A stretch of DNA of 64,000 nucleotides, from positions 4,650,001 through 4,714,000 of the forward strand of contig JBHGNT010000008.1 in the NCBI GenBank assembly GCA_043228905.1, given 5' to 3'. This DNA is from Azolla caroliniana (lineage: Eukaryota; Plantae; Polypodiophyta). The notes under the pieces were generated by a model. It did not search any database and was not told the origin of the DNA. It worked only from the letters and a program-made list of their open reading frames with translations. Position numbers and translations under genes: made by a program. Of this stretch, positions 2,501 to 63,736 are shown piece after piece. Every line of letters begins with the position of its first letter. Positions within the stretch are counted from its first letter, which is position 1.

Positions 2501-2895
2501 AACACTCTTTTTAAAACGCCTCTCAAAGGGATGCTAATTGTTTTAAAAAAATGGGGGAAGAAAGGGGGGGAGATTATATATGTGATGTGCTTTAGTAAAA
2601 ATTGGGGGGAAAAAGGAGATAAATAGATAGATAGATTATATTATCGGCTTCGGATCTCAAAGGAGAGAGAAAGAAAAGAAAGAAAGAAAGATATATTAAC
2701 GTCTTCTAAGGCCAAAATTGGCCCATGAGACAAATGGTGTACAACAAAAATGGGATATTTACCCATTCATCGAAAGTAAAAATAAAAATAAGATAAAATA
2801 GAGTTTAAGCTAAATAGTTCTAAGAAAACAACAAACATGTTCTATATAAAAAAAACATGTTCTACAATGAGAATGATTCTATACTAGGCCTAATT

Positions 2896-5800
2896 TCATT
2901 TCCATCCAAGTCTCTCGAAGAGAAGCGGGGGGTCAAAGGGTTGCCATGATGTGGATGTGGCCCGTGGTCCCCATGTAAGAGGTACCCCAACCATAGCTTC
3001 GAGTCGACGTAGCTCACGTTCCCTTATCTTCTTAATCTTTTCTACTCCACGTTGACTTGTGTTGAAGCCCAACATCCGAGGACGTTTGGTTGCTCTTTGT
3101 ATTTCTGCTTCCTCAAGGGAGAGGCCGAGCGGCATAAGTGTATCCACATTCATCGTCTCCCCATGTTCCTGAAAAATTACACTAGGTACATGTTGATGAG
3201 TAGTAAAAGGGTTATGATTAACACTTTGTAATTTATCCTCCCTATGTTGTTTTAGCTCTAAGATATACCTACCTAGTCTCTTTACACTCGAGGTATCTAA
3301 TAGTTTGGAGAGGGTGGGAGAGGGTCCTAGTATGTCTTGGTATTCCGCCCGTATCTCGGCATAAGTTGGGCACTTGCATGTGAAGTGATACTCATCCTCT
3401 ATCTCTATGTGGCATAACCTACATAGCCTTTCCTCTCTAGGGACTCTATTAGCTCGACCATTCTCAATCTCAAGTTGGTGAGATGATATCCTAAGTTGTC
3501 CAATGGCCACCCTTAGTGCATTTGATAAGAAAGTATCTAGGTATCTTGGTCGTGTAATAAACCCTAACTTAGAGAACTGCAAGAAGTGTTCCTTATAGTA
3601 CACCATTTTAGATGGGAGTGGCTCTCGTGGGGTGATCCATTTGTATCGAGTGTAGATTTGCCATATTTCTTGGCGTATCACTTTATTACGATCTTCACGA
3701 GAGATTAAAGTTTGATCAGTCCCATGGTTGTACTTAAGGGGAGGTAGGTTATTAATGTCTATGCCATTTGCAAATAACCAACTCACCACAATGCTATACC
3801 AAGAGTTGGTGTCTCCAGACACATGTAAGGATCGGGATGCCTCAAAGGCTCGACGGGATATCCTATCTTGTGGTTGACTATGTATCCGATGAATAAAAGC
3901 TACCACTTGAAAGAGTGCTTCTACTAACATCGGGGGTAGGCTAAACTCCGCTCTAATAATGTCATGTGGTACTGTCGATTTGCTTCGGAGTTGACGTGAT
4001 AACATTACCACTAAAGGTCTCTCCAATTGCGTCCACATGAAAGATGGTAGACCTGGAGCCCATACTACTGATGCATACATGAGGGACGGGGTCACTAATG
4101 AGTCGAAAAGCCATCCCTTAGTCCGTGGCTCTTGAAAGTATGCTTGGTGGCATTGTCTCTCTAAGAGTGAGAGGGATGCATATCCTCTCGTTAGCCTATC
4201 TTTGGCTGCCTGGGTCATCGAGAATTTACCTGAGCGAGCACTAAAAGTGACTCCCAAGTATACATAAGATCCCACCACCTCAACTAGTTTATGAGAGAGG
4301 ATGAGGTGACATTTACTCCTAACTCTGGGCGATGTATGAAAGATAAGGACTTTAGTTTTCGCTAGATTCACTACCAGTCCTCGTTGTGTACAAAAGTCAT
4401 CTAGGGCATTAAGATGCTTTTGTAGGTCGTGTTCCGACTCCGAGAGCAAGACAATGTCGTCTGCGTAGAGTAAGAGACTAACTTGCGTATCCCCAATAGC
4501 CACTCCTTTGCCTCCCTTACGAGCAATAAAATCAGTGATCTCATCAATGTAGATCCCAAAAAGAGTCGGTGATAGGGGGCAACCCTGTTTTACACCAATG
4601 GTGCTAGTGAAACAATCGGATAGGCCACCTGGGCATCTTACGCGCCCATAGAGTTGCTCATATAGGGCATAAATGGCCCAAATCATGTCATTTGGTATCT
4701 CCAAGCTCTTAAGTCTATCAAACAACCTCTCCCTAGGTACTGTATCAAAGGCTTTACGAAAGTCCACAAAGCAACAATATAGTTTCTTCTTACGAGCCTT
4801 TGTTTGGTCAATTAAGCACCTAAGTGTGAAGATGTGGTCAATAGTGGAGAAGGCTCGTCTAAAGCCAGCCTGCTCAGGTGCTCGAAGACTTAATGTTTCC
4901 ATATAATCACTGAGCTCCGCTTCCATTACTGCACCATATAGTTTAGCAAGCGTATGACCTATCATAATGGTCCTATATGTATTTGGGTCCATTGGGTCCC
5001 CTCCTTTATGTATAGGGGCCACAGTGTTCATGGCCCACTGTGGTGGAAAACCCTCGGCGAGGGCGCGGTTGAAGATTAGAGTGAGAAGGGGATCTAGGCA
5101 CTCTCGAGCATATATGATGTGCTCGGCTCGCAATCCTGTGTGGTCCATGAATTTCCTATGTTGTAATTTTTTTATGACCTTCGTGACCCTAGAGGTCGTG
5201 AAAAGTGTCCCCATGGTAGGTCGAGGTGTGGAGGGCATTGGAATGGGTGGTTGGTTCGGGACATGGTAGAGTCTCTCGGTATATGTGTGCCAAATATTGG
5301 GATCCTCGATGGGTGTTTGTGGTCTCGGTTCCCGTAGTCTCTTCCATGCAAGGGCACAATCCCTACTCATGAGCATATGGTAGAGTTCCCAATATTGAGA
5401 TGCTTCCCAAGCTCGTCTTTTACGACGTGTCATCTTGCGCATCTCTTTGCGAGCCTGTACTAAGGAGATAGTACCACTGAGTCGCGATACTTTAAGTTGT
5501 CTATACAACTCTCTACAATCCTCGTCATACCACTTGTTTTGTGGCATAGACCCTATTCTACTATGATTGGAGTCTTTCGTGTATGGGAAGCTACTAGTGG
5601 CGGCTGAGTGAAGGATGTGTGTGAGTTCTGTAGTGAGGTTCTCTAAAGGCAAGGAAGAATCAAACGAGGAAAGATGGGCTTGAACATGTCGAGAGTAGAT
5701 GTCCGCGAGCTCATGCGTGAAATGTATTATAGTGTGATGGGTTGGTTTACTAGAGTTGGTGGTGTGGGAGGTGTCACATTTTAGCTCAAAGTATAGGAAG

Positions 5801-6642
5801 GTATGGTCTGCCCCAATGGGGCATGGGGCCACCCGGAAGGAGCTAACCATGTGGGTAGCTTCAGGGCGTCCTATTAGATAATCAACGGTGCTTTCCCCTC
5901 CTCCATGTGGGAAACATGTGAGCTCTTCCGAGCCCGGCCACTTGGCTAAGCCATTATATATGATCATCTGGTGTCGGCTTCCAAGTTCAAGCAGATGATG
6001 GCCAAAGCTTGTGGCATCCGCACCTTGATCCTTCGATGTACGTGTTATGCCTAAGGCTAAAGGGTCGACATTCACCATTTCTAGGTTTCTATCCATCTGA
6101 AATATTGTGCATTGTCGGGACTGGGTTCTCGCATTGAAATCTCCTACCAGGAAGACTTCCCCTTGAGAAGAATATCGGATTATGTCATCCGACAAAGGTT
6201 CGTATGGAGAAGGCCCATGTGGCGTTCCTTCATCAACTATACTCGCCTCTCCAGCCATATTGTAGCGGGACCCTTTCGGGGGGAAGTAACAAACTGCGAT
6301 AAATATCACCTGATCCTTACTAGTGAGGACTTTCACCCACATAAAACGGGCTTCTGGGTCTGACTTTAGTATTTCTATCCTATTATTTATCTCTTTCCGA
6401 AATAATATCGCAACCCCCCCAGACCCTCTAGTAGTGTGTCGACGTGAGGTTTGTCTAAAGACAGATTCCCAACGAAAACCGTCAACTCGTGGCAGTCCTC
6501 GATTTGGGCTTTGATGTGTTTCTACTACAAAAAGTATATCAGATACTTTCAAAATCTCCTCTAGACGGCCAGGATGTGTCCAAAGTGCGCCGTTACAGTT
6601 CCATAAAGTGATCCTAAGTTTATTATCTGTCACATGGGCCAC
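2896..6642 (-). CDS. LINE ORF2: apurinic endonuclease, reverse transcriptase and C-terminal Cys/His motif (intact, 1248 aa)
   Basis: Motifs WNCNG, VETH, GDFNA, VDY, ADH (APE); QAGFR, FVDFRKAFD, GVKQGCPLSP, YADD (RT); RLCRLC..EDEYHFTCKC. Confidence 0.95.
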   Translation of the reverse strand: MAHVTDNKLRITLWNCNGALWTHPGRLEEILKVSDILFVVETHQSPNRGLPRVDGFRWESVFRQTSRRHTTRGSGGVAILFRKEINNRIEILKSDPEARFMWVKVLTSKDQVIFIAVCYFPPKGSRYNMAGEASIVDEGTPHGPSPYEPLSDDIIRYSSQGEVFLVGDFNARTQSRQCTIFQMDRNLEMVNVDPLALGITRTSKDQGADATSFGHHLLELGSRHQMIIYNGLAKWPGSEELTCFPHGGGESTVDYLIGRPEATHMVSSFRVAPCPIGADHTFLYFELKCDTSHTTNSSKPTHHTIIHFTHELADIYSRHVQAHLSSFDSSLPLENLTTELTHILHSAATSSFPYTKDSNHSRIGSMPQNKWYDEDCRELYRQLKVSRLSGTISLVQARKEMRKMTRRKRRAWEASQYWELYHMLMSRDCALAWKRLREPRPQTPIEDPNIWHTYTERLYHVPNQPPIPMPSTPRPTMGTLFTTSRVTKVIKKLQHRKFMDHTGLRAEHIIYARECLDPLLTLIFNRALAEGFPPQWAMNTVAPIHKGGDPMDPNTYRTIMIGHTLAKLYGAVMEAELSDYMETLSLRAPEQAGFRRAFSTIDHIFTLRCLIDQTKARKKKLYCCFVDFRKAFDTVPRERLFDRLKSLEIPNDMIWAIYALYEQLYGRVRCPGGLSDCFTSTIGVKQGCPLSPTLFGIYIDEITDFIARKGGKGVAIGDTQVSLLLYADDIVLLSESEHDLQKHLNALDDFCTQRGLVVNLAKTKVLIFHTSPRVRSKCHLILSHKLVEVVGSYVYLGVTFSARSGKFSMTQAAKDRLTRGYASLSLLERQCHQAYFQEPRTKGWLFDSLVTPSLMYASVVWAPGLPSFMWTQLERPLVVMLSRQLRSKSTVPHDIIRAEFSLPPMLVEALFQVVAFIHRIHSQPQDRISRRAFEASRSLHVSGDTNSWYSIVVSWLFANGIDINNLPPLKYNHGTDQTLISREDRNKVIRQEIWQIYTRYKWITPREPLPSKMVYYKEHFLQFSKLGFITRPRYLDTFLSNALRVAIGQLRISSHQLEIENGRANRVPREERLCRLCHIEIEDEYHFTCKCPTYAEIRAEYQDILGPSPTLSKLLDTSSVKRLGRYILELKQHREDKLQSVNHNPFTTHQHVPSVIFQEHGETMNVDTLMPLGLSLEEAEIQRATKRPRMLGFNTSQRGVEKIKKIRERELRRLEAMVGVPLTWGPRATSTSWQPFDPPLLFERLGWK

Positions 6643-6648
6643 ACGCCG

Positions 6649-7124
6649 TCAATTGGCGGCACGATCATTTATTATGACACGTCCGTCCCGGTAGAAAGCA
6701 CGATGCCCCTCTTTACGAGCTTGTATGACTCGCGGCATACAAGTTTTACGATGCTCAATTTGCATCTTGGTCAAGTCTTCATCGAGGTAGATAGGCTCCC
6801 CGCCCAAGCCTCGAAGAATTGGTCTCTTTTTAAAAAAGGCGATTCTAGATTCTGAGTCCTTAAACTGAAGGACTAAAGCTCTTTTCCTAGTTGTGTCACG
6901 CCCTACCCTCCAGGTTTTAGTGATTGGTAGGGCTTCGTACCCTAACATTTTCCCTAATGTTTGTGCATCTTCATCCGGAGATGCCCCTTCCTTGAGCCCA
7001 GTAACTCGTACATTTAGGCGTCGAGCTTGACGCATTTTTTCTTCCTCGAGGGTGGTGTTTACAATGTTTTCATCCTTTAGTTCTTTTTTAATATTACGTT
7101 TTACTACATCAACCCACCCAGTCT
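6649..7124 (-). pseudogene. LINE ORF1, C-terminal portion (5'-truncated)
   Basis: Peptide KTGWVDVV...DRAAN is identical to the C-terminus of ORF1 at 16397-17188. Confidence 0.9.
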
Positions 7125-7164
7125 TTGTCTCCTCTTTCACCCCCCTCCCCATCTCACAGCTTCC

Positions 7165-11562: not shown

Positions 11563-12646
11563 ATGGAGTTGGTGAAGCACTTGTTTTGGTGACCTCATTT
11601 GCAAAAATTTGTTGAAGATTATGTTCATACATGTGACACCTGTTGTCGAGCCAAAATACCAAGACAAAATCCTTATGGCTTGTTACAACCAGTACCGCCT
11701 CCAACCAAGCCATGGCATTCTATTTCTATGGATTTCACTACGGATCTGCCACCTTCAAAAGGATTTGATACCATTTTAATAGTAGTGGATCGATTTACCA
11801 AGTTGGCACATTTTTTACCATGCATAAAGAGTATCAATAGTTAGGAAACCGCAGATATTGTTATGCGTGAAGTATTTTGCCATCATGGTCTTCTAGATGA
11901 TATAATTACTGATCGTGGTCCTCAATTTATCTCTCACTTTTGGAAGCACCTATGGGCAGTGTTACCGGCCGGCAAAAGAGTCCAGAGTGGGAAACGGAGA
12001 GCTAATTAAGTAGTAGGAATGTGGTTGTAATTAAGCTATGAGTGTGGACAGACGGACCGGAAACGGTATGCCGTTCCGGATCCGGACCGATCCCGAATAG
12101 GTGCGGATGGCACCGTTTTGTAATACAGACCGGAAACCTATTTAAAGGCCCGGATACAATGTAATAGTTAGCGGTTAATTAATGAAAGCTTAAGCGTTGT
12201 TATCTTTCTGTGTTAATTGTCGTTCTGTCTTAATTGTTATATCTTACGCGTGTGTTATGAAAGACGATCATAATAAGTAACTTAATTAAGTCGGATTAAG
12301 TGTTGAGGTCTAATCCGGTTGCCGTAACACCCTTTGGTGAAGTGTCTCCCGTTGTCGAGGTATTCCTCGCGGATGCGTGGAATGAGGCGGGACCTCGGGG
12401 GTCTTGTACCGAAGAGCAAGAAAGAAAAGAAAGAAAGAAAGATATATTAACGTCTTCTAAGGCCAAAATTGGCCCATGAGACAAATGGTTTACAACAAAA
12501 ATGGGATATTTACCCATTCATCGAAGTAAAAATAAAAATAAGATGAAAAATAGAGTTTAAGCTAAATAGTTCTAAAAAATAACAAACATGTTTTATATAG
12601 AAACATGTTCTACTACAGTGAAAATGGTGTTATACAATTGTTATTT

Positions 12647-15600
12647 TCATTTCCATCCAAGTCTCTCGAAGAGAAGCGGAAGGTCAAAGGGTTGCGATGT
12701 GGATGTGGCCCGTGGTCCCCATGTAAGAGGTACCCCAACCATAGCTTCTAGTCGACGTAGCTCACGTTCCCTTATCTTCTTAATCTTGTCTACTCCACGT
12801 TGACTTGTTTTGAAGCCCAACATTCGAGGGCGTTTCGTTGTTCTTTGCATTTCTGCTTCCTCAAGGGAGAGGCCGAGCGGCGTAAGTGTATCCACATTCA
12901 TCGTCTCCCCTTGTTCCTGAAAAATTACACTAGTTACATGGTGATGAATACTAAGAGGGTTATCGTTAGCACTTTGTAATTTATTCTCCCTATGTTGTTT
13001 TAGGTCTAAGATATATCTACCTAGTCTCTTTACATTCGGGGTATCTAATAGTTTGGAGAGGGTGGGAGAGGGTCCTAGTATGTCTTGGTATTCCGCTCGT
13101 ATCTCGGCATAAGTTGGGCATTTGCATGTGAAGTGATACTCATCCTCTATCTCTATGTGGCATAACCTACATAACCTTTCCTCTCTAGGGACTCTATTAG
13201 CCCGACCATTCTCAATCTCAAGTTGGTGAGATGATATCCTAAGTTGTCCAATGGCCACCCTTAGTGCATTTGATAAGAATGTATCTAGATATCTTGGTCG
13301 TGTAATAAAGCCTAGCGTAGAGAAGCGCAAGAAGTGTTCCTTATAGTACACCATTTTAGATGGGAGTGGTTCTCGTGGGGTGATCCATTTGTATCGAGTG
13401 TAAATTTGCCATATTTCTTGGCGTATCACTTTATTACGATCTTCGTGAGAGATTAAAGTTTGATCAGTCCCATGGTTGTACTTAAGGGGAGGTAGGTTAT
13501 TAATGTCTATGCCGTTCGCACGGAGCCAACTCACCACGATGCTATACCAAGAGCTAGTGTCGCCAGACACATATAAAGATCGAGACGCCTCAAAGGCTCG
13601 ACGGGATATCCTATCTTGTGGTTGGCTATGTATCCGATGAATAAAAACTACCACTTGAAAGAGTGCTTCTACTAACATCGGGGGTAGACTGAACTCAGCT
13701 CTAATAATGTCATGTGGTACTGTCGATTTGCTTCGGAGTTGACGTGATAACATCGTCACTAAAGGTCTCTCTAATTGCGTCCACGTGAAAGATGGTAAAC
13801 CTGGAGCCCATACTACTGATGCATACATGAGGGACGGGGTCACTAATGAGTCAAAAAGCCATCCCTTAGTCCGTGGCTCTTGAAAGTATGCCTGATGGCA
13901 TTGTCTCTCTAAGAGTGAGAGGGATGCATACCCTCTCGTTAGCCTATCTTTGGCAGCCTGGGTCATCGAGAATTTACCTGAGCGAGCACTAAAGGTGACT
14001 CCCAAGTATACATACGATCCCACTACCTCAACTGGTTTATGAGAGAGGATTAGGTGACATTGACTCCTAACTCGGGACGATGTATGAAAGATAAGGACTT
14101 TAGTTTTCGCTAAATTCACTACCAGTCCTCGTTGTGTACAAAAGTCATCCAGGGCATTAAGATGCTTTTGTAGGTCGTGTTCCGACTCTGAGAGCAAGAC
14201 AATGTCGTCTGCGTAGAGTAAGAGACTAACTTGCGTCTCCCCAATAGCTACTCCCTTGCCTCCCTTACGAGCAATAAAATCAGTGATCTCATCAATGTAG
14301 ATCCCAAAAAGAGTCGGTGATAGGGGGCAACCCTGTTTTACACCAATGGTGCTAGTGAAACAATCGGATAGGCCACCTGGGCATCTTACACACCCAGAGA
14401 CTTGCTCATATAGGGCATAAATGGCCCAGATCATGTCATCTGGTATCTCCAAGCTCTTAAGTCTATCAAACAACCTTTCCCTAGGAACCGTGTCAAAGGC
14501 CTTGCGAAAGTCCACAAAGCAACAATATAGTTTCTTCTTACGAGCCTTTGTCTGGTCAATTAAGCACCTGAGTGTGAAGATATGGCCAATAGTGGAGAAG
14601 GCTTGTCTAAAGCCAGCTTGCTCAGGTGCTCGAAGACTTAATGTTTCCATATAATCACTGAGCTCCGCTTCCATTACTGCACCATATAGTTTAGCGAGCG
14701 TATGACCTATCATAACGGTCCTATATGTATTTGGGTCCATTGAGTCCCCTCCTTTATGTATAGGGGCCACTGTGTTCATGGCCCATTGTGGTGGAAAACC
14801 CTCGGCGAGGGCGCGGTTGAAGATTAGAGCGAGAAGGGGGGCTAGGCACTCTCGAGCATATATGATGTGCTCGGCACACAATCCTGTGTGGTCCATGGAT
14901 TTCCTATGTTGTAATTTTTTGATGACCTTCGTGACCCTAGAGGTCGTGAAAAGTGTCCCCATGGTAGGTCGAGGTGTGGAGGGCATTGGAATGGGTGGTT
15001 GGTTCGGGACATGGTAGAGTCTCTCAATATATGTGTGCCAAATATTGGGATCCTCGATGGGTGTTTGTGGTCTCGGTTCCCGTAGCCTCTTCCATGCGAG
15101 GGCACAATCCCTACTCATGAGCATATGGTAGAGTTCCCAATATTGAGATGCCTCCCAAGCCCGTCTTTTACGACGTGTCATCTTGCGCATCTCTTTGCGA
15201 GCCTGTACTGAGGAAATAGTACCACTAAGCCGCGATACTTTAAGTTGTCTATACAACTCTCTACAATCCTCATCATACCACTTGTTCTGTGGCATAGACC
15301 CAACTCTACTATGATTGGAGTCTTTCGTGTATGGGAAGCTACTAGTTGCTGCTGAGTGGAGGATGTGTGTGAGTTCTGTAGTGAGGTGCTCTAAAGGCAA
15401 GGAAGAATCAAAAGAGGAGAGATGCGCTTGAACATGTCGAGAATAGATGTCAGCGAGCTCATGCGTGAAATGTATTATAGTGCGATGGGTTGGTTTACTA
15501 GAGTTGGTGGCGTGGGAGGCGTCACATTTTAGCTCAAAGTATAGGAAGCTATGGTCTGCGCCAATGGGGCATGGGGCCACCCGGAAGGAGCTAACCATGT

Positions 15601-16390
15601 GGGTAGCTTCAGGGCGTCCTATTAGGTAATCAACTGTGCTTTCCCCTCCTCCATGTGGGAAACATGTGAGCTCTTCCAAGCCCGGCCACTTGGCTAAGCC
15701 ATTATATATGATCATCTGGTGTCGGCTTCCAAGTTCAAGCAGATGATGGCCAAAGCTTGTGGCGTCCGCACCTTGATCTTTTGATGTACGTGTTATGCCT
15801 AAGGCTAAAGGGTCGACATTCACCATTTCTAGGTTTCTATCCATCTGAAATATTGTGCATTGGTGGGATTGGGTTCTCGCGTTGAAATCTCCTACAAGGA
15901 AGACTTCCCCTTGAGAAGAATATCGGATTATGTCATCCGATAAAGGTTCGTATGGAGAAGGCCCATGTGGCATTCCTTCATCAACTATACTCGCCACTCC
16001 AGCCATATTATACCGAGATCCTTTCGGGGGGAAGTAACAAATGGCAATAAATATCACCTGATCTTTGCTAGTGAGTACTTTCACCCACATAAAACGGGCT
16101 TCTGGGTCTTTCTTTAGTATTTCTATCCTACCATGTATCTCTCTCCAAAATAATATCGCAACCCCTCCAGACCCTCTAGTAGTGTGTCGACGTGAGGTTT
16201 GTCTAAAGACAGATTCCCAACGAAAACCATCAACTCGTGGTAATCCTCGATTTGGACTTTGATGTGTTTCTACCAAAAAAAGTATATCAGATACCCTCAA
16301 AATCTCCTCTAGACGGCCAGGGTGTGTCCAAAGTGCACCGTTACAATTCCATAAACTCATCCTAAGTCTATTATTTGTCACATGGGCCAC
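12647..16390 (-). CDS. LINE ORF2 (APE-RT), intact, 1247 aa
   Basis: Same APE, RT and Cys-His motifs as copy 1; many differences between copies are synonymous. Confidence 0.95.
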   Translation of the reverse strand: MAHVTNNRLRMSLWNCNGALWTHPGRLEEILRVSDILFLVETHQSPNRGLPRVDGFRWESVFRQTSRRHTTRGSGGVAILFWREIHGRIEILKKDPEARFMWVKVLTSKDQVIFIAICYFPPKGSRYNMAGVASIVDEGMPHGPSPYEPLSDDIIRYSSQGEVFLVGDFNARTQSHQCTIFQMDRNLEMVNVDPLALGITRTSKDQGADATSFGHHLLELGSRHQMIIYNGLAKWPGLEELTCFPHGGGESTVDYLIGRPEATHMVSSFRVAPCPIGADHSFLYFELKCDASHATNSSKPTHRTIIHFTHELADIYSRHVQAHLSSFDSSLPLEHLTTELTHILHSAATSSFPYTKDSNHSRVGSMPQNKWYDEDCRELYRQLKVSRLSGTISSVQARKEMRKMTRRKRRAWEASQYWELYHMLMSRDCALAWKRLREPRPQTPIEDPNIWHTYIERLYHVPNQPPIPMPSTPRPTMGTLFTTSRVTKVIKKLQHRKSMDHTGLCAEHIIYARECLAPLLALIFNRALAEGFPPQWAMNTVAPIHKGGDSMDPNTYRTVMIGHTLAKLYGAVMEAELSDYMETLSLRAPEQAGFRQAFSTIGHIFTLRCLIDQTKARKKKLYCCFVDFRKAFDTVPRERLFDRLKSLEIPDDMIWAIYALYEQVSGCVRCPGGLSDCFTSTIGVKQGCPLSPTLFGIYIDEITDFIARKGGKGVAIGETQVSLLLYADDIVLLSESEHDLQKHLNALDDFCTQRGLVVNLAKTKVLIFHTSSRVRSQCHLILSHKPVEVVGSYVYLGVTFSARSGKFSMTQAAKDRLTRGYASLSLLERQCHQAYFQEPRTKGWLFDSLVTPSLMYASVVWAPGLPSFTWTQLERPLVTMLSRQLRSKSTVPHDIIRAEFSLPPMLVEALFQVVVFIHRIHSQPQDRISRRAFEASRSLYVSGDTSSWYSIVVSWLRANGIDINNLPPLKYNHGTDQTLISHEDRNKVIRQEIWQIYTRYKWITPREPLPSKMVYYKEHFLRFSTLGFITRPRYLDTFLSNALRVAIGQLRISSHQLEIENGRANRVPREERLCRLCHIEIEDEYHFTCKCPTYAEIRAEYQDILGPSPTLSKLLDTPNVKRLGRYILDLKQHRENKLQSANDNPLSIHHHVTSVIFQEQGETMNVDTLTPLGLSLEEAEMQRTTKRPRMLGFKTSQRGVDKIKKIRERELRRLEAMVGVPLTWGPRATSTSQPFDLPLLFERLGWK

Positions 16391-16396
16391 ACGCCG

Positions 16397-17188
16397 TCAA
16401 TTGGCAGCGCGATCATTTATTATGACCCGTCCGTCTCGGTAGAAGGCACGATGCCCCTCTTTACGAGCTTGTATGACTCGCGGCATACAAGTTTTACGAT
16501 GCTCAATTTGCATCTTGGTCAAGTCTTCATCGAGGTAGATGGGCTCCCCGCCCAATCCTCGAAGAATTGGTCTCTTTTTAAAGAAGGCGATTCTAGATTC
16601 CGAGTCCTTAAATTGAAGAACTAAAGCTCTTTTCCTAGTGGTGTCACGCCCTACCCTCCAAGTTTTAGTGATTGGTAGGGCTTCATATCCCAACATTTTA
16701 CCCAAGGTTTGTGCATCTTCGTCGGGAGATGCCCCTTCCTTGAGCCCAGTAACTCGTACATTTAGGCGTCGAGCTTGACGCATTTTTTCCTCCTCGAGGG
16801 TAGTGTTTACAATATTTTCGTCCTTTAGTTCTTTTTTAATATTACGTTTTACTACATCAACCCACCCAGTTTTTGCTAGTTCCATATCACTTTTAATCTC
16901 TTCTTTAACTTTTTTTATCTCGTCCTTAATATCCTCTAGAGAAGATATTTCACCATCTTCCCTAGATGTTTCAAGGTCCTTAATTCGTTTTTGAAGGTTT
17001 ACGTTATCTACCTTAAGTTTCGCTACTTCAGCAATAAGCAATTCTCTTTCTTCCTTATCTTTTTGTTTTTCAGCTTCAATTTCTTTCACCCATTTTTCCA
17101 TTTTAACGAACCGGTTAAGGACATCTAAAAAATCTTCCTTACTTATAATTTCTTCGTTTGTTTCCTTATGGTTTCGTCGAGAAGTCAT
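16397..17188 (-). CDS. LINE ORF1 (coiled-coil N-terminus, probable RRM-like/CTD region)
   Basis: ATG at 17188 (MTSRRNH); charged heptad-like region, then RRLNVRVTGLKE...IYLDEDLT, resembling LINE ORF1 proteins. Confidence 0.85.
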   Translation of the reverse strand: MTSRRNHKETNEEIISKEDFLDVLNRFVKMEKWVKEIEAEKQKDKEERELLIAEVAKLKVDNVNLQKRIKDLETSREDGEISSLEDIKDEIKKVKEEIKSDMELAKTGWVDVVKRNIKKELKDENIVNTTLEEEKMRQARRLNVRVTGLKEGASPDEDAQTLGKMLGYEALPITKTWRVGRDTTRKRALVLQFKDSESRIAFFKKRPILRGLGGEPIYLDEDLTKMQIEHRKTCMPRVIQARKEGHRAFYRDGRVIINDRAAN

Positions 17189-18003
17189 CTTGTAATTCAA
17201 AAGATAAAGAAAGAAAAAGACAAAAGGACAGAAAAAACTTAGCCGAGCATCGACGTCTTTCGCGCTAGATATGAGTGTAGAAGCACATGTATGCTTGTTT
17301 CAGCCGGTGACGTCGTCCGGTAAGTGAAGTACCACGATGAAGGGCAACGGCTACACACGATAAAAGCGGCCAAGAATCGAGGACGAGAAGGGAGAAGAGA
17401 CCCACTACGTGCGAGAGTAGATTCACAGGGACACGGCCCTTCGACACAAAGACGCGAGTGGGACAGCGACACAGAGAGACACGAATGTATGTATGTATTA
17501 ACAAAGACAAACAACAAAACACGAGGTCGGTTACAACCGAACAGGCCGGCGAACAGATGTCGATACCTGTTCATAAACACACAGAAAGGAAGGAGTAGGT
17601 TGGAGGTGCTGCCGGAAGCACTCGGGCATTCCTCAGAGCAGCGCGAGCCTCCCGAAACCTGCACAGAAGGAAGCTATGGAGCTTGCGAACCAGAGAGAGA
17701 GAGAGAGAAGCCTTCGCACACAAACCGACAGCACTTCGTCCTCGACTCTCCGCGATCCCATCCCCCTTCGCATCTCCCTCCTTTTATAGGCAAGGAAGGA
17801 GCCGTTTCCCCCTTTACTTCCTACCCACTAAATCTACCTGCCTAGGATCTTCCATGGACAACATTCGAGAAGAGCCGGTTCCTACGTTCCTGTGCACCGA
17901 TTCCGCTTGTGGACGGTTTTCTTCACGACATCCGCCCCCACCTAACCACGCATCCACCGGCATGCGCCAAATTGAGTTGGGACGGAGAAAACCGGTCCAG
18001 CCT

Positions 18004-26854: not shown

Positions 26855-27758
26855 AAGATGTCGAGGTATTCCTCGCGGATGCGTGGAATGAGGCGGGACC
26901 TCGGGGATCTTGTACCGAAGAGCAAGAGAGAAGGGAGAAGAGACCCACTATGTGCGAGAGTAGATTCACAGGGACACGGCCCTTCGACACAAAGACGCGA
27001 GTGGGACAGCGACACAGAGAGACACGAATGTATGTATGTATTAACAAAGACAAACGACAAAACACGAGGTCGGTTACAACCGAACAAGCCGGCGAACAGA
27101 TGCCGATACCTGTTCGTAAACACACAGAAAGGAAGGAGTAGGTTGGAGGTGCTGCCGAAGCACTTGGGCATTCCTCAGAGCAGCGTAAGCCTCCCGAAAC
27201 CTGCACAGAAGGAAGCTATCCAGAGCTTGCGAACCAGAGAGAGAGAGAGAAGCCTTCGCACACAAACCGACAACACTTCGTCCTCGACTCTCCGCGATCC
27301 TATCCCCCTTCGCGTCTCCCTCCTTTTATAGGCAAGGAAGGAGCCATTTCCCCCTTTACTTCCTACCCACTAAATCTACCTGCCTAGGATCTTCCATGGA
27401 CAACATTCGAGAAGAGCCGGTTCCTACGCTCCTGTGCACCGATTCCGATTGTGGACGGTTTTCTTCACGACACTGTAGACACCCTGTGTTAGGCCATTGT
27501 CCGGCCCGAAGAGTTAACAGGCAGGCCTCAAAATCTCCTACAAACTCTCTTTGGCTTATCATCCACAAACCAATGGACAAGCAAAGTGCACAAATCAAAC
27601 GCTCGAGCAATATCTTCGATGCTTCATTAGTTATCAACAAGATGATTGGAGCAATATTCTACATCTTACTTAGTTTGCATACAATAACATGGTACACTCT
27701 TCTACCAAGGTTACACCTTTCTTTGCCTACACCGGTAACCATCCTCAATGGTGTATCT

Positions 27759-60042: not shown

Positions 60043-62982
60043 TCAAATGGAGGTACTATTGGGGATGCCTTTTCCTGTGAGCCCCTCGGAAGAGAAAGGG
60101 GAAAGAAGGGTGTATGGCACTTTGACAGATCCATGTCGATTGTGAAGCGTTGGGTTAGCATTACGAGCTATAATATTCTTCTCGATGATCAAAAGTTGAG
60201 CCTTAAACCGCTTGAAAGCTTCTATAGCCGCTTCATTGGCTATCCAAAAAGGTGCACGATCTCCCAGATACTCCTCGTCATCTGCATGGGTGGACAAAAT
60301 CTCGATGATGGCCATCACGATGATGGCTTGAGTCTTGGTGGAAAGAGATGTTAAAAAGTCAGGATGATGTTCCCCTAGTGTGTAACCATTCTTCTCATTG
60401 TCAATGACATTGTCCTCTTCATAAAATGGTATCAACTTTCTCGCAGATGTTGGTTTGTTTGGCATGAACCCTGCGTATGCATATTGTCCAAAATTTACCG
60501 CTGCATGATGTGCTGATGCGAGCCATATGATTGTAGTTAAAGCCTCCCCCAATTCATCGACCCCTTGCATTACATTTATCCACCCTTCTTTTTTGTCCCC
60601 ATGTCCCACCCCTAACACTTCATCCCACCATCTTTCCAACTCCACATCCTTCTTTAAAGCCTCTTCTCCATCACCTTTGTAGAAAATACTTAGGTATTCT
60701 CTCACCCACTCCTTGATCGCCCACCATATCTCTAGCCCGTCCACTGCAAAGGGATAGTCTTCTATCAATAGCCTCAACCCATGTTTTGATGTAGGATCCT
60801 CCACTGCCATCCCCCTACAATGATGAAACAACATTAACAACTATATTTTGCAACATATAAGCATACACATTACATTCCCTACACCACACTATTAGAGTAG
60901 GCCCAAGTGACTATTTTTGACAAATTTTGGATGGCTATAGATGGATTTGGTCTTGGCAGAAACCTCTATATATAGGTCTCAAACTAAAATTGCAAATAAC
61001 AAAATGCATCAACTAGCTGAATTTTGCAATGGACAAGGTTTACTACTAGACTATCAACTATTTCATAATTTTGTCATAGTATAGAAAGAACTCATGTATA
61101 ATGGGTTAGATATTAAGGTTGGGGTGAGCCAATTAGTTAGTAGATTGACTTTGGTCACGTTTAGTCTACATGGATATGCTTCATACATCAATCTTTGGTT
61201 TTATAAGATGAGGATATAAAAAGGCTAGCTAAGGTGCATTAGCTAGTCTCATTATGAGATTGGTTGACAAGAAAGAAAGAAAGATATATTAACGTCCTCT
61301 AAGACCAAAATTGGCCCATGAGACAATTGGTTTACAACAAAAATGGGGTATTTACCCATTCATCGAAAGTAAAAAAAAAAAAAAAAAGAATAGAATAGAA
61401 CTTAAGCTAAAGAGTTTTCTACATGTTTTATTACCTTTTGAGCAAATCAGCTGGCAAGCCTTGCTCATCGAACCGCCAACTTCTATACCCTACCGAGCTC
61501 ATCTCCATCGAGTATTTGTTAGAGAAAAATGTTCTTTCAATGATCCCTCCAATCAAGAATTGACCGGTGTAGGCATTGATCAATATTTTCCTCGCAATTG
61601 CATTTATGTTCATTGTATTTTTGAAATGTGGCACAAGCAAAACATGAAGAGGATGCATGGCACTAAGATGCCTATGTGTGGCAATGATAAAAGGCTCTAT
61701 GGAAGCATGGGTACGAAGCCTACAAAATGTAAAACAACATATAATTTTCAATATTGTTATGTAACATGTTTAACCAAATAAATCCCTAAGAAAAAATGAA
61801 AGTGAAAAAAAAATCCTTCTTACCAATGACTAATGAGTTGATGATAACCTGCATCATTGATAGATACATGTGCTTTGGCAAGATGCCACCAAGTATGGTT
61901 TTCGTTCGGGTCATGTGGTGGAGTAAAAACTCTATTCAATTTTTGGGGGTCATCCTTGTTGGAGTTAGTGGGCAAACTTAGTTCTATTGCAAGCAACTTG
62001 AGTGTCCCATTTTCTGTGAGGAAAACCACGGTTCGAGATGCATATGCCTTTACTTCCTCCAAGGCATTGATCTTCCCTATGTAGGGGAGGAATACATCAT
62101 GGTAGTCTAGTATGTACAATCTATTTTGATTGATAGCCTAACAAAGAAAAGTAATTGCAAAGCATTAAAAATCAGAAAACACATATGTTTACAAATGTAA
62201 CATGAAATGTATAGTTCTTGTGTATATTTATTTTAACTTGTTGCCCCATTGTATATATTCCTGGACTTGTATATTTCTTATTGATTAACTCATCACTACA
62301 TTTGCAAATAGTAAAGAATACATCCAAATTGTGCAATGAACACAATGTTGTGTTTTGAATGTAAGCCAATATTCTAAAAATTGATAGATTCTTATACCTC
62401 TACTACAGAGAGGCCGTTCATGTTTTTCTCTAAATCGTATGATGTTATTGAAGACGTTGTTGGCCCGTAAACATTTGGATCTAGTTTGGATTCAATGGGG
62501 AAAGCCTAGTAAAGTAGGAAAAGTGGTTAGTATCACTAAAAAAGCATTATATAAAACCTACATGATTTCAAATAAAAGCATTATATAAAATCACCTTTAA
62601 CCGTTGAATGACCATTGGATTCAGTCCGGCCAACATTTGACGTGCAAATTCATCATCTTGAAGCCAAGCAGTGTGGTTGGCTACAAGGAGGAAACACCAT
62701 GCATTTTGATAAGATATATGGTTAATTAGCAAGACAAATGACTAAGAATTGTTCAAGAGAACGAGGTTTTGCAAGTAAAAAAAGAGTTATTGAATGGAGA
62801 TCTAGGTGACATATTTCCTTGGAAATTGTGACTAGTTTTTAGATTAATTTGTAGAGCAAGAATGATTGATGAGCAAAGGAATCTCGATTCTCCACCATCA
62901 TTTTTAGATGATTGGTGAAGAGGTTCAATGGAATCTTGTTGAAAACTTACAAAGTTAATAATCGTGGCAATATTGAAAAACA

Positions 62983-63024
<42 letters not shown>

Positions 63025-63736
63025 CTTACCTTGTATTACTTGGGGTACTGGGAACTTGAGAAAATGCGTGTCTCCAGTGCTAGGATCAATGATTTCACGA
63101 GCTAGTTCAAACACATTTTTAAGCCCTTTTTCTATTTCCTCATTGGATAAGGGCACAATAGCACCAACATCGATGCCAACACCCTTGGAATAGAGCTCTT
63201 TGACTTCATCAATGTGCGTAAATGTCTTCTTTCCCTCGATAAGCCTCTCAAGCACCGTTAATGTTCCATGAGCAAACGACTTTATCGAGGATCCTAAGAA
63301 ATCAGACTTCTTGATACGTTGAAATCGTTCGTCTCTTGGCACATATACTAACTCTAGAAGCTCCACCGGCCTTTCCGATGAGGGGTCTACCTTATTCATC
63401 AACATCAAGTTTGACATTGTGTTATTATTTTGACATCAATGCATTTAATGGAATTAGGATACTCATAAAAATATTTTGTCTAGGAGCTTTACCTATCTCG
63501 GTCCTATCTCGGCCTGTTCTACACCTTCGAGGGTAGGGGAACTCTTTTGAACCACCTAGAATGGTTCTAGAGTAGAGTTGATTATCCTTATCTGGGTCAC
63601 CAAGATCATTGTACACATCATAGTCATATATCCGGTCATGCCTCCATCTTTTTCCCCTACCATTACCTTGTAATTGTTCAAGCTCAGAATATCGAAGATC
63701 AATAAGACCATCTGGAGTTTGGTTTGGGAGGTATAC
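60043..63736 (-). CDS. LOX: Lipoxygenase, 3' seven exons (63736-63493, 63386-63030, 62680-62595, 62505-62398, 62137-61824, 61719-61435, 60814-60043); 5' exons beyond the window
   Basis: [76 protein letters not shown]-terminal [12 protein letters not shown] introns with consistent phases. Confidence 0.95.
61269..61412 (-). mobile_element. 3'-end fragment of the same LINE family in the last LOX intron
   Basis: AAGAAAGAAAGAAAGATATATTAACGTC...TTGGCCCATGAGACA...CCCATTCATCGAAAGTAAAA matches 2680-2815 and 12430-12570. Confidence 0.9.
62985..63020. repeat. (TG)n microsatellite in a LOX intron
   Basis: Seen directly. Confidence 0.9.

Follow-up and report, generated by a model that had tools for sequence, protein, structure and literature searches.

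A predicted long-range duplex beside the ORF1 stop codon of a fern LINE as a candidate stimulator of readthrough into ORF2

How long interspersed nuclear elements (LINEs) obtain the protein of their second open reading frame (ORF2p) from a bicistronic RNA, and how that protein comes to act on its own RNA, are open questions that have been addressed mainly in L1 and SART1, both of which use reinitiation. A stretch of 64,000 nt from contig JBHGNT010000008.1 of the fern Azolla caroliniana (the window, to whose positions on the minus strand all element coordinates refer) raises the first question in a specific form, because it holds two LINE copies in which ORF2 directly continues the frame of ORF1 after a lone TGA. 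How does such an element make its reverse transcriptase (RT)? From the sequences and their predicted folds, we consider it likely that a long-range duplex between the region just past the stop and the 3′ untranslated region (UTR) stimulates readthrough of the UGA, so that a minority of ribosomes would produce a 1513-amino-acid (aa) ORF1–ORF2 fusion. The features on which this reading draws are listed below; here and throughout, statements taken from cited papers refer to the portions of their text that were available.

12419..17385, minus strand: copy 2, a full-length family-A LINE of about 4.97 kb; in 7 of 14 close copies the match is lost at 17384–17385
16397..17188, minus strand: ORF1 of copy 2, 263 aa plus TGA, with a predicted coiled coil, RNA recognition motif and C-terminal domain; resembles human L1 ORF1p
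16394..16399, minus strand: ORF1 stop of copy 2 with its context UGA-CGG, a type II readthrough hexamer (PMC13517186, PMC5382211)
16373..16389, minus strand: proximal arm of copy 2, 17 nt, beginning 7 nt past the stop; recognized by pairing and codon-position invariance
12647..16396, minus strand: ORF2 frame of copy 2, 1249 codons, with APE endonuclease, reverse transcriptase and a C-terminal CCHC motif
12470..12486, minus strand: distal arm of copy 2, within the 3′ UTR; 16/17 of its positions complement the proximal arm
12452..12482, minus strand: predicted two-part 3′-terminal stem–loop of copy 2, fold −13.8 kcal/mol, whose 5′ strand is the distal arm
12419..12440, minus strand: (TTTC)n microsatellite tail of copy 2
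2668..7127, minus strand: copy 1, 5′-truncated, of a subfamily with ATC at ORF2 codon 13; 94.6% identity to copy 2
6646..6651, minus strand: stop and context UGA-CGG of copy 1
6625..6641, minus strand: proximal arm of copy 1; 15 Watson–Crick pairs, one G-U and one U-U mismatch
2896..6648, minus strand: ORF2 frame of copy 1, 1250 codons, first Met at codon 103
2719..2735, minus strand: distal arm of copy 1, overlapping the 3′ stem–loop of that copy (2701–2731)

The original prediction of readthrough started from these two junctions, and its description of them held on re-examination. Both copies read AAT TGA CGG CGT GTG GCC CAT GTG ACA; the TGA lies at 16399–16397 in copy 2, where ORF1 starts from an ATG at 17188 and the ORF2 frame stays open to 12647, and at 6651–6649 in copy 1, where ORF1 is truncated at about 7127. 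Copy 1 has no in-frame Met up to codon 103, and the first endonuclease motif, WN, already stands at codon 16. The early ATG of copy 2 is codon 13, replaced by ATC in copy 1, and an out-of-frame ATG-TGA is present near the junction, as had been noted. The third codon after the stop (codon +3) is GTG in both copies, and the encoded junction is rich in Arg.

The in-frame TGA is found in 30/30 of the closest genomic copies (29 followed by CGG, one by CGA) and in 18/18 readable junctions among 20 more diverged copies (16 with CGG), and it is therefore not a chance trait of two copies. The closest copies divide evenly at codon 13 into 15 with ATG and 15 with ATC; the ATC subfamily, with a median identity of 99.7%, is young and recently amplified, and lacks any AUG until codon 103. 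A pattern of a stop, 6 nt and the motif that follows matched the genome 454 times, compared with once for its reversed control. When no stop was required, 125 of 130 junction copies gathered by our own searches still carried a stop at a distance of exactly 6 nt upstream of the motif, and 125/130 kept the frame. Other assemblies supplied 20 contigs, of which 13 cover the junction, with TGA-CGG in nine, TAG-GGA in two, and TAA-CGG and TAG-CGC in one each; their codon +3 is GTG, ATG or GCG, with ATG in 4/13 and, in addition, in L078. In one assembly codon +3 was GTG in both of two subfamilies (L063/L067) and in another it was ATG in both (L066/L068), a pattern that suggests either that the subfamilies exchanged junctions or that the codon changed in parallel according to host.

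The hexamer itself did not prove constant. Three further families in the same genome carry TGA-CGA (family B, 11/14 junctions), TAG-CAA-GCA (C) and AAA-TAG-GGA (D), so that UGA-CGG, put forward originally as the conserved signal, was rejected as such and is only family A's version. Variable stop contexts, which the original prediction had named as evidence against leaky termination, are thus what the family alignments contain (UGA-CGA, UAG-CAA and UAG-GGA); the objection is softened because, judged by sequence, UGA-CGG, UGA-CGA, UAG-CAA-GCA and AAA-UAG-GGA match or resemble contexts of readthrough types II, I and III. The alignments did bear out the common frame and single stop, including in very distant relatives, and no notable local 3′ structure appeared. 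The proposed fusion of about 1500 aa thereby remains the best-supported reading, with another signal in place of the hexamer.

The constant part is the motif 6 nt past the stop. ORF1 ends differ among the families while the spacing from stop to motif holds, and the arm formed by the motif lies 6–7 nt from the stop in all four families at a varying distance from the endonuclease. The fixed distance points to a terminating ribosome, and fits readthrough and reinitiation alike.

A partner for this motif was first spotted in read mapping, in which the motif appeared reversed near the 3′ end of the element. In copy 2, the 17-nt proximal arm, which spans most of the codon +3 GTG and the out-of-frame ATG-TGA, matches the element's own 3′ UTR at 16/17 positions across 3.9 kb. 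Long stretches were fetched for 44 elements (38 with and 6 without the junction), and in 35 of the 38 junction copies the best downstream complement lay immediately ahead of the tail, in the family's own 3′ end. Across 33 copies from four families (a set without L300, L308, L314 and two copies with doubled 3′ ends), 445/462 cells pair. Changes on both sides of the duplex maintain pairing at J4 (G-C/A-U), J7 (C-G/U-A), J11 (A-U/G-C) and J15 (A-U/C-G), with G-U wobbles elsewhere. In each of the four families the junction window outscores all 254–291 control windows from the same ORF2, and shuffling gave p = 0.001 for junction complementarity in 5/5 elements. Cognate arm–UTR pairs score highest for families A, C and D, and B pairs slightly better with the UTR of D.

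The arm also stands out in the coding frame: over ten rows of the family-A lineage, third codon positions within the arm are invariant at 4/4 sites compared with 1/20 upstream. An explanation of the post-stop block as a conserved peptide was rejected, because its codons change non-conservatively and its bases covary with the UTR. The duplex has a predicted energy of −26.4 kcal/mol in family A and comprises 14–18 base pairs (bp) over spans of 3.4–3.9 kb among the families. All four families use the distal arm as the 5′ strand of the predicted 3′-terminal stem–loop, a similar hairpin being predicted in B, C and D. Duplex (−26.4 kcal/mol) and hairpin (−13.8 kcal/mol) are mutually exclusive because both use the distal arm. 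A search of Rfam returned one chance-level match only.

A duplex at this position could also serve reinitiation. Ribosomes that terminate after ORF1 would then start again at the AUG, GUG or GCG three codons on, or at the codon-13 ATG. The duplex would hold or position the post-termination 40S subunit, and ORF2p would be a protein of its own, as it is for L1 and SART1. We think this unlikely, but arguments for it exist, of which the main one is that all fern families have, at a fixed place, a purine–pyrimidine–G codon followed by GC or AC, which is AUG in several. A fixed 6-nt spacer would yield the same frame automatically, and L1 tolerates non-AUG starts. Coupling in SART1 depends on structure downstream, and reinitiation in L1 is unconventional (PMC5972666). 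Against this stand the burial of codon +3 in the duplex, where pairing alone accounts for its second and third bases, a −3 base that is mostly a pyrimidine, and a codon +3 that is GCG in two lineages (L070, L071, L075 and L076).

More distant elements bear on the same choice. With an ORF2 profile we found 80 LINE loci (L327–L406) in genome bins of prokaryotes, a few symbiont bins accounting for many of them; we infer that these contigs represent contamination by host DNA, in many cases probably that of marine animals. The match reaches the ORF2 N terminus in 33 of the 80, and setting aside four with no upstream stop in the contig leaves 29: 20 have a long in-frame ORF1 and one stop directly before ORF2, 5 an ORF1 that ends 47–225 nt upstream, and 4 none nearby. 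All 20 in-frame ORF1 stops are TAG, 15 of them TAG-G, compared with TAG at 1/14 ORF2 stops of the same elements; reinitiation would not require the identity of the stop to be kept. Only 2/20 in-frame elements have a Met ahead of the first endonuclease motif, as against 4/5 spaced ones (5 by eye; p = 0.005); the other 18/20 in-frame elements lack such an AUG, and relatives with an early AUG mostly have spaced ORFs. In 6/20 in-frame elements the first endonuclease strand begins right at the stop. The start at codon +3 is likewise absent from these relatives and from L328, which is sister to the fern families (98/93). In L328 the stop context is TAG-GGG, the first Met comes at codon 120 and a 16-nt complement lies immediately ahead of the tail. 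The post-stop window pairs with the element's own 3′ zone in 7/13 testable in-frame elements (Fisher p 1.7e-7) and in 1/5 comparison elements. Readthrough would explain the conserved stop identity, contexts that shift among leaky classes and the lack of an AUG in most distant relatives.

In an unrooted RT tree of 28 rows (two dropped for want of an RT motif), in-frame elements occupy several deep branches. The spaced-ORF relatives with an early AUG (L330, L341, L353, L355 and L360) are interleaved with them, which suggests repeated switches between two modes of expression.

The pairing might instead have nothing to do with decoding and serve replication or RNA control (recognition by the RT in cis, a stem–loop hidden until translated, or stability), with ORF2 expressed by context-only leakiness or another route. 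The distal arm supplies one half of a 3′-terminal stem–loop that is predicted and conserved, a kind of structure that stringent LINEs have at their 3′ ends (PMC3747384), and 6/13 distant in-frame elements have no significant 3′ complement. This account nevertheless seems improbable to us, as the placement of the proximal arm 6–7 nt from the stop in four families, at variable distances from the endonuclease, indicates a terminating ribosome.

Least probable of all, to the point of being hardly credible, is removal of the stop from the RNA, whether by splicing or by A-to-I editing beside the duplex, with UAG or UGA read as Trp, to give a fused mRNA. Double-stranded RNA does adjoin the stop, and the stops are TAG or TGA and hardly ever TAA, which would be what a single A-to-I change to Trp needs. 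The stop itself, however, lies outside the duplex; we know of no ADAR enzymes in land plants; and the appearance of CGG or CGA once the stop had become UGA is predicted by leaky termination and not by editing. Three poly(A) RNA runs under the same species label gave 1–7 reads over the stop, all less than 95% alike and from both strands; among the matches listed no read showed a joint at the junction or an altered stop, in numbers too thin to judge expression, editing or splicing.

Duplex-stimulated readthrough could proceed in three steps. Most ribosomes would terminate at the UGA and release ORF1p. On a full-length RNA, the 3′ UTR arm would pair 6–7 nt past the stop, near the ribosomal mRNA entry, where the duplex and the leaky context together would favour a near-cognate tRNA over release factor. 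A ribosome that reads through would then strip the duplex, and the freed 3′ end would refold into the stem–loop that is probably recognized by the reverse transcriptase. RT synthesis would in this way be restricted to intact RNAs and tied in cis to the same RNA, with the ORF1p:ORF2p ratio set as in gag-pol readthrough. The switch, with its check for full length and its coupling in cis, is modelled on carnation Italian ringspot virus (CIRV), and the part given to the hairpin in replication is likewise inferred. Readthrough and reinitiation could also both operate.

Several observations weigh against this proposal. Families B and C, L078 and some subfamilies of A have AUG as codon +3, and A and D have GUG; the first base of this codon remains a purine in A and C, where it has no pairing partner, as expected of a start codon. 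An ATG at codon 13 is present in most family-A subfamilies and in 18/18 readable junctions of the more diverged copies; the ATC subfamily, which lacks it, could have been mobilized in trans, and its branch carries three synonymous and three non-synonymous changes, too few to show selection. As for the duplex, known stimulators have an 8-nt spacer and it begins 1–2 nt nearer the stop; a U-U mismatch within it is fixed in family A, and weaker complements of the proximal arm within family-A ORF2 (+420 and +3660) could compete with the 3′ UTR. The best complement is not the own 3′ end in L300, L308 and L314 (3/38). L070, of the GCG type, has no recognizable 3′ end, and no GCG-type element with an intact one was found. 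The local fold at the junction is not unusually stable (z −0.72), on which ground a local stimulatory stem was rejected. Among the distant elements, the lack of a significant complement in 6 of 13 counts here too; the test window was chosen after the fern geometry had been seen, and related sequences are non-independent samples.

Some further sites touch on the pairing. The internal complements of family A include a perfect 10-mer 420 nt downstream (15960–15969 and 6212–6221, minus strand) and a −28 kcal/mol site at about 12720–12745, and were not seen at the same places in families B–D. The motif without a stop matched the genome 264 times (control 56); examples (L150–L177 and L248–L267) are mostly 3′ ends read backwards. 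Walking upstream from 20 unusual 3′-end motifs reached a junction in 1 case and none in 19. Such stop-less matches may be short truncated copies, or short interspersed nuclear elements sharing the tail.

The encoded proteins fit a LINE of this kind. A model of ORF1 (pLDDT 77.9) had the L1 ORF1p trimer 2ykp as its top Foldseek match (E 1.5e-6), and named ORF1 homologues occur in Adiantum and Ceratopteris; a sequence search of the PDB with ORF1 gave weak matches only, mostly to coiled coils. Domain searches of ORF2 found endonuclease and RT domains and no protease domain. Longer ORF1 homologues comprised three annotation chimeras and no natural ORF1–endonuclease–RT fusion family, which is weak evidence. 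Genome and viral contigs scanned with an ORF1 profile gave no matches, and the ORF2 profile made nine partial RT matches in viral contigs. Four single copies (L293, P0077, P0148 and P0112) have a sense codon at the stop position and thus an open ORF1–ORF2 frame; these are probably post-insertion mutations, and no fused family was found behind them.

In the window, copy 2 starts next to one member of a 548-nt repeat pair (17385–17930 and 26928–27472, 96% identical) that flanks Ty3/Gypsy-like coding fragments and probably represents long terminal repeats (LTRs); the LINE appears to be inserted at or in that LTR. Exons of a lipoxygenase-like plant gene, recognized by eye, lie at 60043–60840 and 62947–63435 on the minus strand, and between them is a third piece of the LINE.

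61266..61416, minus strand: 3′-end-only fragment of the same family, with distal arm and tail

Readthrough has been suggested before for one LINE group, in Paramecium (PMC5405496), so that the idea alone is not new; long-range pairing at the ORF1 stop is, as far as we found, undescribed. Even under reinitiation, a covarying duplex spanning 3.4–3.9 kb at an ORF1 stop is something that we did not find in the LINE literature searched. More broadly, we give even chances to the proposition that a deep LINE clade reaching from ferns to, probably, marine animals makes its RT as a gag-pol-like fusion by programmed readthrough, gated by a kilobase-range RNA switch. The 3′ stem–loop recognized by RT would open and pair beside the stop, so that the enzyme would come from full-length RNA only, and that same RNA would then be released for copying by the ribosome translating it. 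If true, LINE ORF2 would have a third way of being expressed, and cis preference an explanation at the level of sequence; the enzyme would be tethered to ORF1p trimers, and annotations that start ORF2 at a downstream Met would be wrong. The short, defined sequence pair offers a directly testable model for both of the questions with which we began, with natural compensatory variants as a guide.

Among known LINEs, the fern element may belong to RTEX (RTE-X), although the RT tree holds only unlabelled relatives. APE, RT and a C-terminal CCHC motif are a feature of RTEX, and the fern element shares them together with the presence of an ORF1 and a microsatellite 3′ tail. RTEX elements are recorded in green algae, with non-poly(A) tails (table in PMC3747384), and in bivalves (PMC10294476); some have an esterase ORF1 (PMC3905857), unlike the L1-like ORF1 here. 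The available text of PMC10294476, PMC11203168, PMC5753468, PMC3905857, PMC3747384 and PMC5009743 supplies clade background and no account of this junction. Pairing between a stop and the 3′ UTR over a long range was not found for any LINE in a literature search outside which lay most subscription journals, supplements and Repbase, where entries may already note the in-frame stop. Group 3 non-LTR elements of Paramecium also have ORF1 and ORF2 in one frame, with readthrough suggested from consensus sequences; they form a separate ciliate clade, and no stimulatory signal is given for them in the text available (PMC5405496).

With L1 and SART1, whose ORF2 is translated by termination–reinitiation (PMC5972666, PMC10760644), the fern element shares a bicistronic RNA and an L1-like ORF1p fold, and SART1 too needs structure past the stop (PMC5972666). 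It differs in having no 63-nt spacer, no UAAUG overlap and no shared AUG (codon +3 is AUG in B and C and GTG in both window copies, of which copy 2 alone has the codon-13 ATG), and in having a single conserved leaky stop and 3′ UTR pairing. The order of structural gene, stop and enzyme gene in one frame is that of gammaretroviral gag-pol, as in Moloney murine leukaemia virus (UAG-GGA plus a pseudoknot; PMC13517186), and UAG-G is the commonest context in the distant relatives (15/20). The LINE, unlike that virus, is a non-LTR element with no local pseudoknot and no protease domain found in ORF2. Type II readthrough of tobra-, peclu-, furo-, pomo- and alphaviruses (PMC5382211, PMC13517186) offers the exact UGA-CGG and, about 7 nt downstream in the LINE, a predicted helix; that helix is long-range in place of a local stem–loop about 8 nt past the stop, and only one lineage of the clade has the hexamer.

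The closest parallel is the PRTE–DRTE interaction of the tombusvirus CIRV, where readthrough needs pairing over about 3.5 kb with a switchable 3′ replication element that adopts mutually exclusive folds, and where a short dual-luciferase cassette failed (PMC3234231). In both, an in-frame stop precedes the polymerase, pairing over 3.4–3.9 kb in the LINE reaches a 3′-terminal element, and the distal arm lies within a mutually exclusive predicted 3′ fold; family D even has UAG-GGA. The LINE is a retrotransposon, known here from sequence and predicted folds, and its family A uses UGA-CGG. Its arm pairs directly 6–7 nt past the stop with no large local SL-PRTE stem–loop, which is a further point on the opposing side; because this local carrier is missing, the LINE signal would work like the tombusvirus signal without having all of its features. 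If our reading is true, a recoding strategy of plant RNA viruses also runs in a widespread clade of retrotransposons.

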